Part shown: positions 209 through 4,139 of the stretch, in pieces | How positions within the stretch are numbered: the first letter of the stretch is position 1 | How the letters are laid out: every line of letters begins with the position of its first letter | Origin: a virus | Taxonomy: Duplodnaviria > Heunggongvirae > Uroviricota > Caudoviricetes | Length of the DNA: 4,301 bases | Strand: one strand, 5' to 3' | Virus record (IMG/VR): IMGVR_UViG_3300000293_000103 | Notes under the pieces: model-generated | The model's input: only the letters and a program-made list of their open reading frames with translations | Told to the model about the DNA's origin: nothing | Database searches by the model: none | Made by a program: the position numbers and the translations under genes

Positions 209-350
209 TTCACTTTAAAAAGGGCGGCAGAGCAGTCACGGAGTAAAACTGATACCGCCAAATGTCACCAGAAAATTGATAACAGAGGGCGTTGCAGCGG
301 GGTTGTCACTTAAGCGTATGGTCAACCTGACAACCCGGTGTCCTCAACGG

Positions 351-703: not shown

Positions 704-922
704 TTAACGCGGGTATGTAATCATTCTGGCAATGCTTAATGCCGCTGCTTTTTCCAGCCTGGTGATATCCTGCTCCAGAGCGGACAGATTTTCAGCCTGC
801 TTAGCCCTGGCTTCATTGGCCCATTTCAGATCCTGCGCTGCATTAATTTTCTGGCGCATCCACTCATAAAGTTCATCATCGGTATAGTCTGGCGCGATGA
901 TGACGGGTTCTCGTTTCTGCAT
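704..922 (-). CDS. Hypothetical small phage protein (72 aa), last gene of the leftward early operon
   Basis: ATG at 922-920 preceded by GAGGAA with a 5-nt spacer; TAA stop at 706-704. Predicted helical, charged protein (MQKREPVIIAPDYTDDELYEWMRQK...). No family recognised. Confidence 0.6.
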   Translation of the reverse strand: MQKREPVIIAPDYTDDELYEWMRQKINAAQDLKWANEARAKQAENLSALEQDITRLEKAAALSIARMITYPR

Positions 923-951: not shown

Positions 952-1080
952 TCAGCCGTTAGATTTTGCCGAGCTGGAAAGCGCCTGTTTAAACTCACTG
1001 AAGCTGAGAGCTTCTTCGCCTTCGGCAAGGCCTTCGAAGTATTCTTCGTAAGCCTTTTCCATGATTGTGTCGAAATCCAT
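952..1080 (-). CDS. Small acidic protein (42 aa, MDFDTIMEKAYEEYFEGLAEGEEALSFSEFKQALSSSAKSNG), absent from the ORF track
   Basis: Translated by hand. ATG at 1080-1078 lies 1 nt after the upstream gene's stop (1084-1082), with AGGTGA just upstream; TGA at 954-952. It fills the gap between the two flanking leftward genes exactly. Too short to be certain. Confidence 0.45.
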   Translation of the reverse strand: MDFDTIMEKAYEEYFEGLAEGEEALSFSEFKQALSSSAKSNG

Positions 1081-1081
1081 A

Positions 1082-1237
1082 TCACTCACCTGAGTTTCTT
1101 TCCAGCCAGCGACGGGCACCATTTTCGGTTTTAAACGTTTTGCTTTTGGTATACGTCATCACGGTGAACGTACCGTCCTGGTTGGGGAACACGCCACATA
1201 CCAGAGATTCGCTGTTGCCAAGATCGATAGTATCCAT
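1082..1237 (-). CDS. Small phage protein (51 aa from the internal ATG; 78 aa if started at 1318), resembling the small YdaF/YdaG-type proteins found next to Rac-type repressors
   Basis: ATG at 1237-1235 is preceded by GAGG with a 5-nt spacer, giving MDTIDLGNSESLVCGVFPNQDGTFTVMTYTKSKTFKTENGARRWLERNSGE. First gene downstream of the leftward promoter. The family resemblance is from memory and the 5' end is ambiguous. Confidence 0.55.
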   Translation of the reverse strand: MDTIDLGNSESLVCGVFPNQDGTFTVMTYTKSKTFKTENGARRWLERNSGE

Positions 1238-1418
1238 GCTGACCTCATTTCCCCTTAACGCCGGGGTAGCGGAACAAAAACCTGCTGCATAGTTATTAAA
1301 GTTGAACCCTGCCGTCATGTTCTTACGCCTCGGGCTGGCTACTTAACCCCTGACCACTGCCTGGTAACTCGAAGTATTGCCCTGCATTCTGTGGGGCGGG
1401 GTGGGTTGGTATGCTGTT

Positions 1419-1447
1419 AAGGTAACAAGAGTTACCTTTCGAGTCAA
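1419..1447 (-). promoter_or_regulatory. Leftward early promoter (PL-like): -35 TTGACT (1447-1442), 17-bp spacer, -10 TACCTT (1424-1419), with embedded operator
   Basis: Hexamers read on the minus strand. The geometry mirrors the rightward promoter at 2220-2249, with the same palindrome in the spacer. The -10 is weak (TAnnnT only). Confidence 0.4.
1421..1436. promoter_or_regulatory. Operator OL: palindrome GGTAAC-AAGA-GTTACC
   Basis: Perfect 6-bp arms with 4-bp spacer; same GTAAC-N4-GTTAC core as the two sites at 2185-2198 and 2233-2246. A lone GGTAAC half-site is at 1363-1368. Confidence 0.55.
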
Positions 1448-1479
1448 TACGATGTTGCAAAAGGTACATTTGAGAGCGT

Positions 1480-1505
1480 GAAAAACCCGCAATGAATGCG
1501 GGTTC
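1480..1505 (-). terminator. Rho-independent terminator of the repressor gene
   Basis: On the minus-strand RNA: 8-bp stem AACCCGCA/UGCGGGUU with loop UUCAU, followed by a U tract (UUUUUC in total); begins 5 nt after the repressor stop (1512-1510). Not terminator-like on the plus strand. Confidence 0.6.
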
Positions 1506-1509
1506 TGAC

Positions 1510-2184
1510 TCAGTCTAAGTATTGATGTATTTGTGAAACTTTACCTTTAATGGTGTAACCACCATTCAGTTCGATGGGTTTGTAAAGCGGATTCAGTGAC
1601 AACAGATAGATGTTTGGTCCGTCAATCGCAACTTTTTTTAGTGTTACGTTTGGCGTTCCTTCCAATTGGATTAAGATTATTTTTCCCACCAGTTCTCTAA
1701 TGTTACTTGAGCATGGTGTGATCAGCACGGTAGATCCATCGGGGATGGTTGGGAGGCCGTTAGAGTTTGTCATCGCATCTCCCTCAACATGCAATAAAAA
1801 AGAGTTTTCAGCGGTTTTTGTCATGACATCAACCCAATTCTTAATGCCAGGAATCTCGGTTACTGGACAACTCATATCCCAATAACCAGCCTGTTCCCAC
1901 GTTAAAACGGGCAACCGGGCGATGTTGTCACTAATGTAAAGATACTGATTCAGACGCAGATCATCGGTTTTATCGTGACCGTCCTTTCCATAAAGAATCC
2001 ATTCAGGAGATTTGGAAAGCAATTTTGACAGTAGATGCAAATTCTCACCGTCAGGTTTTGAAGAGCCATTTTCCCATTTTGTTACGGATACACGAGATAT
2101 GCCGATTGCTTTCGCAACCTGCTGTTGGGTTAATCCAACGTCTTTTCGACGATTCCGAATACGTTCGCTGATAGTGTTTTTCAT
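1510..2184 (-). CDS. Prophage CI/C2-type repressor: N-terminal XRE-family HTH plus C-terminal LexA-like S24 peptidase domain, with Ala at the catalytic Ser position
   Basis: N-terminus MKNTISERIRNRRKDVGLTQQQVAKAIGISRVSVTKWENG matches the P22 C2 / DicA HTH pattern. Linker has an Ala-Gly (EQAGYW) at the expected cleavage position. C-terminus has HVEGDAM...TLKKV, i.e. the S24 motif with Ala for Ser. Start placed at ATG 2184-2182 by alignment to P22 C2; the ORF-track TTG start at 2283 would run across the operators and the cro start. Confidence 0.88.
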   Translation of the reverse strand: MKNTISERIRNRRKDVGLTQQQVAKAIGISRVSVTKWENGSSKPDGENLHLLSKLLSKSPEWILYGKDGHDKTDDLRLNQYLYISDNIARLPVLTWEQAGYWDMSCPVTEIPGIKNWVDVMTKTAENSFLLHVEGDAMTNSNGLPTIPDGSTVLITPCSSNIRELVGKIILIQLEGTPNVTLKKVAIDGPNIYLLSLNPLYKPIELNGGYTIKGKVSQIHQYLD

Positions 2185-2198: not shown

Positions 2199-2219
2199 TA
2201 CCAAGTGATGTTGCTATGG

Positions 2220-2249
2220 TTGACATTGCTATGTAACTATTGTTACCCT
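2220..2249 (+). promoter_or_regulatory. Rightward early promoter (PR-like): -35 TTGACA (2220-2225), 18-bp spacer, -10 TACCCT (2244-2249), with operator OR-b GTAAC-TATT-GTTAC (2233-2246) in the spacer
   Basis: Consensus -35; weak -10; operator overlaps the spacer and -10, the classic repressible arrangement. OR-b differs from the OL core at one central base. Confidence 0.45.
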
Positions 2250-2275: not shown

Positions 2276-2491
2276 ATGTTCAAAGATGATGTTCTGCGCT
2301 ATTTCAAAAAAAAGCGACTAGTAGCTGAGGCTCTTGGAATTTCACATGTGGCTGTTGTGCGGTGGAAAGCAGTTATTCCCAAACTTCGCGCAATGGAACT
2401 GGATGAAATTACTAACGGTGAATTGAAATACAACCCAGAACTTTACAAGAAGCAGGATAGCACCTCGAACGAAGGAAAGAATGATTCATGA
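2276..2491 (+). CDS. Cro-like small HTH regulator (DicC / YdaS-like)
   Basis: AGGAGA 5 nt upstream of the ATG; 71 aa, MFKDDVLRYFKKKRLVAEALGISHVAVVRWKAVIPKLRAMELDEITNGELKYNPELY. Divergent from the repressor. The pattern matches my recollection of Qin DicC (LYFGSKTKLAQAAGI...SWKG...GRAMRLQE..GGELQYDPKVY). Confidence 0.85.
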   Translation: MFKDDVLRYFKKKRLVAEALGISHVAVVRWKAVIPKLRAMELDEITNGELKYNPELYKKQDSTSNEGKNDS

Positions 2492-2913: not shown

Positions 2914-2984
2914 CTGACAATAGCCATATCGAATCGCTTCCGGCAACTCGTGAGTAAAAAGATTCGGTATCAGAAGAGGTGAGT

Positions 2985-4139
2985 ATGGCTAACGCCTGGC
3001 TCAGATTATGGCATGACATGCCAAATGACCCTAAGTGGCGAACAATTGCCAGGGTGTCAGGGCAGCCAATTGCAACAGTGATGGCAGTGTATATCCACCT
3101 CCTGGTGAGCGCGTCACGAAATGTCACGCGAGGTCACATTGATGTCACGACAGAAGATTTGGCAAGTGCGCTCGACGTGACAGAAGAGGTAATTGATTCA
3201 ATTTTGCAGACGATGCAGGGGCGGGTACTTGATGGTGATTTAATCACTGGATGGGAAAAACGCCAGGTGCTGAAAGAGGACAACGGCAATATTTCGCAAA
3301 CCGCAAAGTCTCCGGCAGAGCGCAAGAGGGCGCAGCGAGAGAGGGAAAGAAAGCGGGAACAAAATGGCGATTGTCACGGCGAGTCACGAAATGTCACGCA
3401 CATGTCACGACGAGTCACGACAGATAAAGATACAGATAAAGATACAGATCAAGAAGATCAAAACACTATGGTCCATGGCGTAAAAAACGCCACGAACCAG
3501 GCAGGGGATGTTCAGACCGTCACTCCTGGCCAGCCCGCAGGCACGACACCGGAAGCCGATTCAGCGTATGCGCTGAAAGCCGATTCGGGCGCTGTGCAGC
3601 AGGTGATGACCGCAAGGCAGGAGCAATCACACCAACTTCAGCAGCCTGAAGCCGATTCCGCCATTCAGCGGGAANNNNNNNNNNNNNNNNNNNNNNNNNN
3701 NNNNNNNNNNNNNNNNNNNNNNNNNNNNNNNNNNNNNNNNNNNNNNNNNNNNNNNNNNNNNNNNNNNNNNNNNNNNNNNNNCACCGGGCAGCCTATGGGA
3801 CGAGTGGATTATCCTGATGTGTTCGAACAGGTCTGGCGGGAATACCCGTTGCGTGCCGGGGCAAACCCGAAGAAATCCGCTTTCAGTGCCTGGAAAGCCA
3901 GATTACGCGAGGGGGTGCCACCAGAGGCCATGCTGGATGGCGTGAGGCGTTACGCAAGATACCTTGCGGCTACCGGGAAAACGGGAACGGAATTTGTTCA
4001 GCGAGCGACGACGTTTTTTGGACCGGACCGGAATTTTGAAAACCCCTGGCTGCTCCCGGTAAGCGGCACGAACAACCAGCGTTGTGTGAATCATATTTCT
4101 GAACCGGATACCGAAATTCCACCGGGCTTCAGGGGGTAA
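2985..4139 (+). CDS. Phage replication initiator-like protein (lambda O / Rac YdaU-type), with iterons and a low-complexity linker inside the gene
   Basis: ATG 2985 preceded by GAGGTG with a 5-nt spacer (the track's GTG 2979 is 2 codons upstream); TAA at 4137-4139. Structured N-terminal domain, charged KR/DE-rich linker coinciding with the DNA repeats, conserved-looking C-terminal domain (YPDVFEQVWREYP...FSAWKARL...RYARYL...FFGPDRNFENPW). The frame is assumed continuous across the N gap at 3675-3781. Confidence 0.7.
   Translation: MANAWLRLWHDMPNDPKWRTIARVSGQPIATVMAVYIHLLVSASRNVTRGHIDVTTEDLASALDVTEEVIDSILQTMQGRVLDGDLITGWEKRQVLKEDNGNISQTAKSPAERKRAQRERERKREQNGDCHGESRNVTHMSRRVTTDKDTDKDTDQEDQNTMVHGVKNATNQAGDVQTVTPGQPAGTTPEADSAYALKADSGAVQQVMTARQEQSHQLQQPEADSAIQREXXXXXXXXXXXXXXXXXXXXXXXXXXXXXXXXXXXXTGQPMGRVDYPDVFEQVWREYPLRAGANPKKSAFSAWKARLREGVPPEAMLDGVRRYARYLAATGKTGTEFVQRATTFFGPDRNFENPWLLPVSGTNNQRCVNHISEPDTEIPPGFRG
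3113..3149 (+). repeat. Iteron cluster A: four direct GTCAC(G/A) repeats at 3113, 3123, 3133, 3144 (10/10/11-bp phasing), plus an inverted GTGAC at 3177-3181
   Basis: Read directly; the 17-mer GTCACGAAATGTCACGC is identical to one in cluster B (3383-3399). Confidence 0.65.
3373..3419 (+). repeat. Iteron cluster B: five direct GTCACG repeats at 3373, 3383, 3393, 3404, 3414 (10/10/11/10-bp phasing); candidate origin core
   Basis: Read directly; helical-turn phasing is typical of initiator binding sites (lambda ori lies inside O). Immediately followed by the AT-rich repeat. Confidence 0.7.
3421..3464 (+). repeat. AT-rich tandem repeat (CAGATAAAGATA x2, then degenerate CAGATCAAGAAGATCAAAAC) with two GATC sites; candidate DNA-unwinding element
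   Basis: About 70% A+T, A-skewed on the plus strand, adjacent to iteron cluster B; GATC at 3447-3450 and 3456-3459. Encodes the DKDTDKDTDQEDQ linker peptide. Confidence 0.6.
3675..3781. other. Run of 107 N (gap or masked) inside the replication gene
   Basis: Literal N characters; 107 is not a multiple of 3, so reading-frame continuity of the flanking ORF is an assumption. Confidence 0.95.

Follow-up and report, generated by a model that had tools for sequence, protein, structure and literature searches.

A probable GTAAC-N4-GTTAC operator within the predicted leftward promoter of a lambdoid Escherichia coli prophage

In the immunity region of phage lambda, the leftward promoter together with its first operator (PL/OL1) reads TTGACA-TAAA-TACCACTGGCGGTGATA-CT. 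Here, we analysed a stretch of 4,301 nucleotides (nt) from a virus of the class Caudoviricetes (IMG/VR record IMGVR_UViG_3300000293_000103), which we refer to as the window at its full length, with a focus on positions 1419-1447. A first reading of this stretch, made from its letters without database searches and called the sequence-only reading in the following, had proposed that these positions hold a leftward promoter with the operator of the phage repressor CI placed between its -35 and -10 hexamers. Judging from the sequence comparisons presented below, 1419-1447 is very probably the core of the repressor-controlled PL of a lambdoid Escherichia coli prophage, whose operator OL1 would be bound by the CI protein encoded next to it.

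The closest described systems provide the framework for our comparison. Repressor sites of phage P22 are symmetric and 18 bp long, with four central bp that are not contacted (PMC4267663). They have half-sites of 5 bp (consensus ATTTAAGATATCTTAAAT); the P22 repressor C2 places Val33 on the TpA step, and the residue that precedes Trp38, Gln37, extends to position 4 of the half-site (PMC5175364). For the Qin prophage of E. coli K-12, it has been shown experimentally that DicA represses the promoter dicBp, which drives ydfABC-dicF-dicB (PMC10448788). Analogues of PL, of the rightward promoter PR and of the promoter for repressor maintenance (PRM) have been described in prophage CP-933P, along with a leaderless repressor gene, paaR2 (PMC8630535). 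In the same prophage, the main site of the protein YdaT (OM) lies at the cro/ydaT junction, beside the promoter for repressor establishment (PRE) (PMC9986795).

Two predicted outward promoters and three copies of one probable operator

On the minus strand, the PL -35 hexamer TTGACT (1447-1442) is followed by a gap of 6 nt (CGAAAG, 1441-1436) and by the operator core GTAAC-N4-GTTAC in the form GTAACTCTTGTTAC (1435-1422). This operator, OL1, fills the spacer of 17 nt between -35 and -10, and the TAC at the end of its palindrome opens the -10 hexamer TACCTT (1424-1419), which is extended by a TGT directly on its 5' side (TGT plus TACCTT, 1419-1427). At the same time, OL1 is part of a longer palindrome with two arms of 8 bp around four central bases (AAGGTAAC-AAGA-GTTACCTT, 1419-1438). 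Transcription is predicted to start at the A of ATACCAACCC (1412, minus strand), 7 nt past the -10. The mirrored arrangement is found on the plus strand, where the PR -35 hexamer TTGACA (2220-2225) precedes a gap of 7 nt (TTGCTAT), the OR1-equivalent operator GTAACTATTGTTAC (2233-2246) and an extended -10 composed of TGT and TACCCT (2241-2249; hexamer 2244-2249), with a spacer of 18 nt. The claim of the sequence-only reading that both promoters carry the same operator inside the spacer, 6 nt past TTGACT on the minus strand and 7 nt past TTGACA at 2220-2246 on the plus strand, was thus borne out to the base. As also stated there, the two operators differ at one central base, the seventh (C versus A), and in both cases the right half-site contributes to a TACC(T/C)T -10, i.e. 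TACCTT at PL and TACCCT at PR.

A third exact copy, absent from that earlier reading, adjoins the ATG of cI at 2185-2198 and occupies a position equivalent to OR3. In total, GTAACNNNNGTTAC occurs in exactly three exact copies in the window (1422-1435, 2185-2198 and 2233-2246), and a scan of this prophage in a complete genome (19.2 kb), in which up to one mismatch was allowed, returned the same three sites and no others. The same inverted-repeat operator is hence located on both sides of cI, where it overlaps the outward promoters in register with their -35 and -10 hexamers. Could the three copies simply be chance repeats or functionless leftovers of a duplication? None of 200 dinucleotide-preserving shuffles of the window gave any exact copy, and the positions of the sites are kept across genera and down to 41% CI identity, so that we regard this explanation as practically negligible.

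Weaker sites accompany the three strong ones. When the window was scored with a position weight matrix (PWM), OL1 obtained the top score (25.8), while the fourth-best match (10.0 compared to a background of at most 4.6) was a site upstream of the PL -35, which we designate OL2 (1454-1467, minus strand GTACCTTTTGCAAC). OL2 has three mismatches, and its centre is 32 bp from the centre of OL1; relatives show a better or even exact site at this position, e.g. GTAACAATAGTTAC in locus L010. We also considered a third OL site but discarded it, as only 13 nt remain between OL2 and the intrinsic terminator of cI (1481-1504, minus strand), which lies between the cI stop codon and OL2. To the right of cI, a possible weak OR2 (2210-2223, minus strand TCAACCATAGCAAC) is located between OR3, which is 25 bp away, and OR1, which is 23 bp away. 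Among the PWM positions of this interval, it ranks first in 9 of 12 loci and second in the remaining 3; in the window itself, its score of -3.6 is below background and the assignment is tentative only. Taken together, the three strong sites of the immunity region are accompanied by one or two weak sites.

Conservation of the arrangement and covariation with the repressor helix

The sequence-only reading had suggested searching homologous prophages for the same palindrome. A search with the CI protein yielded intermediate relatives at 89, 88, 70, 66, 52, 52, 52 and 47% identity, the contigs of which were fetched. The resulting GTAAC class comprises 12 loci, the window and 11 relatives with CI proteins 89-41% identical to that of the window, with members from E. 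coli, Salmonella, Yersinia, Hamiltonella, Arsenophonus, Pantoea, Klebsiella and Pectobacterium. None of the isolated phages in INPHARED encodes a CI more than 44% identical to the window CI; Pantoea AH07, Klebsiella ST13-OXA48phi12.2 and Pectobacterium ZF40, with 41-43% identity, show the same motif and architecture. A CI search of genome contigs returned only two unrelated Firmicute helix-turn-helix (HTH) matches.

We found the sites at the same positions in the 11 relatives. In all of them, one copy is located 7 nt past a rightward TTGACA-like -35 and a second one exactly 48 bp off, adjoining the cI ATG. Downstream of the cI terminator, 11 of the 12 loci (window counted) have an operator 6 nt past TTGA(C/T)N, and a further, usually better copy is present 32-35 bp upstream in relatives, at the position of OL2. 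The gaps of 6 nt at PL and 7 nt at PR are constant across loci, and the sites hold their positions while the surrounding DNA diverges. We also scanned IMG/VR with the 18-mer 'OR3 + ATGA' and obtained at least 120 contigs with at least 69 distinct CI proteins. Among the matches listed, OR1 (with at most one mismatch) is found at -48 from OR3 in 117 of 119 contigs, the PL geometry in the 200 nt that follow cI in 105 of 113 and the helix ..RVSVTKWE in 111 of 113 complete CI proteins.

This recognition helix varies together with the operator. All 12 CI proteins of the GTAAC class have (S/T)RV(S/T)(V/I)TKWE, the three of a GTAGG class (mEp390, YeP1 and vB_EcoM-720R4; GTAGG...CCTAC) have ..RVTVTGWE, and the TTAAG class of P22 and phage 21 has SNVAISQWE, with TTAAG...CTTAA in the phage 21 immunity region of DE3. 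The CI residue before the Trp is thus K with GTAAC, G with GTAGG and Q with TTAAG, and the equivalent Cro residue is K or R, G or E, and Q, respectively. Here, neither the Val nor the TA step varies, and the variable residue faces the variable bases; the 5-N4-5 geometry with its variable N4 matches the uncontacted centre of the P22 sites. In the light of the contacts known from P22, this covariation gives strong indirect support to the assumption that CI and Cro read GTAAC-N4-GTTAC. The proposal that this palindrome is the repressor operator is hence supported by positional conservation as well as by helix covariation in both proteins. The further proposal that it defines the immunity specificity of this phage stands in the sense of an immunity class, not of a feature unique to the phage, since the class is also present in Pantoea AH07, Pectobacterium ZF40, a Klebsiella phage and prophages of Yersinia, Hamiltonella and Arsenophonus. 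One could also speculate that a single residue of the helix (K, G or Q in front of the conserved Trp) largely determines the immunity class within this repressor family.

The chassis itself extends beyond these classes. Homologues at 36-42% identity have a -35, 6 nt and a 14-bp palindrome of 5-N4-5 type, the last three bases of which start the -10, and most of them also keep an operator beside the cI ATG. CTAAG is found in vB_EcoM-689R6 and GTAAG in Morganella IME1369_02, in one phage each. Altogether, we observed at least seven half-sites on the one chassis (GTAAC, GTAGG, TTAAG, CTAAG, GTAAG, TTAGY and CTAAA; loci L015-L023, L024, L025 and L026). Between the better-sampled classes, changes are confined to inner half-site bases and the one helix residue.

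Another protein might read the motif, e.g. a host factor or the DNA-binding protein YdaT, the gene of which is only 250 bp distant. However, YdaT recognises TTGATT-N6-AATCAA (PMC9986795). We looked for this site in the promoters and found none there; the only good copy in the window, ATGATTCATGAAAATCAA at 2481-2498, has one mismatch and is located at the junction of the cro stop and the ydaT start. Moreover, the class of the motif changes together with the CI and Cro recognition helices across loci in which the third gene differs (YdaT, Phage_CP76 or none). A reader other than CI and Cro is therefore very unlikely.

The palindrome could also be thought to work at the level of RNA, as a terminator or processing hairpin at the end of the cI transcript, since its arms could pair to form an 8-bp stem around a 4-nt loop, approximately 75 nt downstream of the cI stop codon. 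However, a strong intrinsic terminator already stands between cI and the palindrome. Its hairpin (-18 kcal/mol, z = -6.1), followed by UUUUU, has equivalents in relatives; it was confirmed by folding after a generic promoter and terminator scan of the window had not called it. With this terminator at 1481-1504, little cI transcript should reach the palindrome, which itself lacks a subsequent U-tract. The same motif is also present next to the cI ATG and within the spacer of PR, in each case in register with -35 and -10, and no Rfam family was found over PL or OL. Changes of one arm alone (GTAAC...GGTAC in AH07, ZF40 and many viral contigs) would break the stem, and because they come without compensation we rejected the hairpin, which we consider highly improbable, in favour of a DNA operator.

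The -10 elements and the PL leader offer a further view on the promoter. We compared 142 distinct promoter-operator strings from all fetched loci and found a TGn element in 63 of 71 weak TACC.. -10s versus 4 of 65 better TACA.. -10s (Fisher p = 1e-24, uncorrected for phylogeny), the pattern expected of promoter elements that compensate for each other. In the window, the TGT at PL as well as at PR is of this extended -10 type. When the immunity region was compared to isolated phages by megablast, the PL leader alone was matched (window 1300-1414). Phages vB_EcoS-689R5 and Evi share the window sequence from 'ATACCAACCCACCCCGCCCC' only, i.e. from 1412 downward, and their operators differ (CTAAA-N4-TTTAG and a TTTAAT...ATTAAA palindrome). 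The mosaic joint with these phages thus coincides with the predicted +1 of PL, indicating that the immunity-specific module ends there. Phages of other immunity types carry the leader (ATACCAACCCACCCCGCCCCACAGAATGCAGGGCAATACTTCGAGTTACC…GGTTAAGTAGCCAGCCCGAGGCGTAAGAACATGACGGC) at 94-99% identity. As a separate observation, AAGTAGCC(N)CCCGAGGCGTA(A/T)GAA recurs in the PL leaders of AH07, ZF40, YeP1, L012 and L013, distant relatives with N genes and boxA, neither of which is present in the window.

Several points weigh against our interpretation. Compared to sigma-70 promoters, for which a spacer of 17±1 nt is expected, the -35 hexamers match the consensus at five (PL) and six (PR) of six positions and the spacers are 17 and 18 nt long, but each -10 agrees with TATAAT at three of six only. 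Why did the generic scan call neither PL nor PR? We attribute this to the same weak -10 hexamers. OL2 has the mismatches mentioned above and OR2 is not recognisable in the window alone. In the Salmonella locus L008, the PL module is missing behind cI. Moreover, the counts and the Fisher p value overstate the support, given that the loci compared share phylogenetic history. Finally, a literature search for GTAAC/GTTAC operators and for the RefSeq protein accessions found no paper on this immunity type. Regarding L008, this Salmonella relative (L008/L009, CI 70% identical) has kept OR1 and OR3, an unrelated open reading frame (ORF) of 204 amino acids follows its cI, and its CI carries the Ser-to-Ala change discussed below; it may represent a decayed or rearranged prophage.

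The weak -10 and the silent scan would also fit a situation in which the operators are real and PL is misplaced, with the true -10 and start elsewhere and TTGACT/TACCTT being fortuitous. Against this argue the -35, the -10 that opens with TAC and the gap of 6 nt, which are kept in 11 of 12 loci and, among the matches listed, in 105 of 113 viral contigs, and the TGn, which is present exactly where the -10 is weak. In addition, the joint with phages of other immunity lies 7 nt past the PL -10, and the layout is the same at Qin dicBp. We thus consider a misplaced PL unlikely and maintain the predicted promoter at 1419-1447.

A model for repression, the cI start and a Ser-to-Ala change

From the sequence anatomy, the conservation and the covariation with the repressor helix we infer the following model, in which binding, start sites, cooperativity, looping between the OL and OR sites (811 bp apart) and the order of site filling all are predictions. 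A dimer of the adjacent CI would bind OL1 through its P22-C2-like HTH, with one recognition helix per 5-bp half-site and the four central bp uncontacted. On OL1, it would cover the spacer and the -10 and thereby exclude RNA polymerase, and Cro would bind the same site later, in lytic growth. When free, PL with its near-consensus -35, 17-nt spacer and extended -10 TGT-TACCTT would start at about 1412 on the minus strand and yield a transcript with a leader of approximately 175 nt, followed by ydfA-ydfB-ydfC-dicF-dicB. The same arrangement would apply to PR via OR1 (2220-2249), with a predicted start at about 2256-2258 on the plus strand, and the third site on the cI start (2185-2198) would let CI or Cro shut off cI. 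OL2, approximately three helical turns upstream, probably adds cooperative binding; given its three mismatches and the unrecognisable OR2 in the window, cooperative binding is a conjecture.

The site adjoining cI may have an additional role. Its N4 is held to AT(T/C)(G/A) in most relatives, and its minus strand contains TAACAT (2197-2192), a candidate -10 of PRM. We do not claim a lambda-like activation of PRM by CI at OR2, as a leaderless start at 2184 puts the centre of OR2 near -32, not -42. This cI start at 2184 is kept in all relatives. In the annotation by the Prokaryotic Genome Annotation Pipeline (PGAP), cI starts at ATG 2226, which gives a protein of 238 amino acids; the 14 additional codons are the translated PR -35 and OR3 (…GNIGY = GGTAACATTGGTTAC) and vary like non-coding DNA. 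No Shine-Dalgarno sequence conserved across relatives was found between OR3 and the cI ATG. Since the ATG directly adjoins the operator and the interval lacks such a sequence, the cI mRNA is probably leaderless, with the -10 TAACAT inside the operator.

The cI gene (1510-2184, minus strand) encodes a repressor of 224 amino acids with the Pfam domains HTH_3 and Peptidase_S24. In a search of solved structures, P22 C2 was closest to the N-terminal domain (1ADR and 2R1J, E ~3e-12), and CI aligned with lambda CI over residues 11-217. In this alignment, Ser149 of lambda CI, the nucleophile of self-cleavage, corresponds to Ala137 (codon GCG, 1774-1776, minus strand), with GDAM in place of the G(D/E)SM of S24 peptidases. 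By contrast, both the Ala-Gly site (EQAGYW) and the catalytic Lys (TLKKV) are still present. RecA-stimulated self-cleavage relies on a Ser/Lys dyad in addition to the Ala-Gly site, and here the Ser of the dyad is replaced by Ala. The same replacement is present in the E. coli relative with 89% identity (GCG) and the Salmonella relative with 70% identity (GCA); relatives at 88, 66 and 52% keep the Ser (TCA/TCG), and the loci with Ser include L006, L010 and L011. Among the matches listed in IMG/VR, 38 of 113 complete CI proteins show GDAM.

Hence, a CI with GDAM is predicted to be non-inducible (ind-) in what is a common E. coli prophage. One may go a step further and speculate, although we ourselves lean towards doubt, that the switch is frozen, i.e. 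that PL/OL and PR/OR are blind to SOS and were domesticated to form a permanently repressed or stochastically flipped controller of DicF/DicB. If this holds true, the circuit found in 702 of 5426 genomes would control the cell-division inhibitors DicF and DicB rather than phage induction.

The prophage and its comparison with known systems

The window is 100% identical to a region of the E. coli chromosome, and 702 of 5426 complete E. coli genomes (~13%) carry at least 80% of the stretch 1300-2500. Its layout is ydfABC-dicF (leftward) - PL/OL - terminator - cI - OR - cro - ydaT - replication gene. To the left of PL, ydfA (1082-1237, minus strand) and ydfB (952-1080, minus strand) were aligned to Qin of K-12 and are followed by a ydfC-like gene (704-922, minus strand), another of the genes that PL would drive, among which (704-1237) the Pfam family DUF1391 was found. 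Downstream of ydfC, the small RNA DicF matches Rfam family RF00039 over its full length (222-273, minus strand; 77 bits), and dicB and ydfD follow in a complete genome annotated by PGAP. Because of the position of DicF, PL appears to head a dicBF-type operon of cell-division inhibitors. As PL would drive a ydfABC-dicF-dicB-type operon, it is the likely equivalent of both lambda PL and Qin dicBp. A sub-threshold Rfam match to STnc100 was seen at 70-210.

To the right, cro (2276-2491, plus strand; Pfam P22_Cro family) is the first gene of the PR transcript and is followed by ydaT (2488-2913), a CII analogue, and by a replication initiator gene from 2979 on (ORF 2979-4139). Owing to the YdaT site copy at the cro/ydaT junction, a PRE-like establishment promoter for cI is likely in the window. 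GTCACG-type words are repeated at about 3110-3420 and could be origin iterons; they lie upstream of the second of two runs of N (351-446, 96 bases, between ydfC and dicF; 3675-3781, 107 bases, inside ORF 2979-4139). In the complete genome, PGAP annotates integrase, exonuclease, ydfD, dicB and ydfC on the left side of the prophage, and replication genes, RusA, a Q-like antiterminator and lysis genes on its right side.

Besides predicting which prophages are homoimmune, the map suggests sites for reporters or mutations by which the DicF/DicB operon of these strains could be derepressed. The natural operator/repressor pairs (GTAAC, GTAGG, TTAAG and others) share an identical geometry and could serve as orthogonal switches. 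The immunity type is common to phages and prophages of several other genera besides its share of complete E. coli genomes given above.

Compared to lambda, the window has the same organisation as PL/OL1 and PR/OR1, with a strong -35 and, in the spacer behind it, an operator whose end opens the -10. Further features in common with lambda are the mirrored arrangement to the left and right of cI, the divergent orientation of cI and cro, an S24 domain at the C-terminus of the repressor and a cI gene that is probably leaderless. In contrast to lambda, the operator core has 14 bp (5-N4-5) instead of 17 bp and an unrelated sequence, OL has two recognisable sites instead of three, the left operon carries ydfABC-dicF-dicB and lacks an N gene and boxA, and the repressor has a P22 C2-type domain for DNA binding. 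The immunity region of phage 21 (imm21, in DE3) is similar in that TTGACC, 6 nt, TTAAGAAGTCTTAA and a -10 TAAATT follow each other and an operator stands beside the cI ATG. With P22, the window shares the C2-type N-terminal domain, a Cro of the P22_Cro family and the conserved Val on the TA step. Half-site (GTAAC versus TTAAG) and helix (SRVSVTKW versus SNVAISQW) differ, however, and the phage is therefore predicted to be heteroimmune to P22, which has six operators compared to the three strong and one or two weak ones found here.

At Qin dicBp, the layout is again alike (TTGACC, 6 nt, TTAGTCATGGCTAA, then TCT). The operon behind it is homologous: beginning with the ribosome-binding site of ydfA, the sequences of ydfA and ydfB hardly differ, and ydfC and dicF follow. 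Unlike the window CI, DicA has 135 amino acids and no S24 domain; its operator is TTAG(T/C)-N4-(A/G)CTAA, and the leader between promoter and ydfA is unrelated. The right arm with cro and ydaT and the YdaT operator copy at their junction resemble CP-933P of E. coli O157:H7, in which, unlike here, the repressor PaaR2 is part of a toxin-antitoxin operon. The CP-933P operators were checked as well and differ, being 18-bp repeats with the consensus GTTTAGTAA (PMC8630535). The design as such is the textbook plan of lambda and P22 and adds nothing conceptual to this paradigm; new are the operator sequence and the promoter map of a common, previously uncharacterised immunity class.

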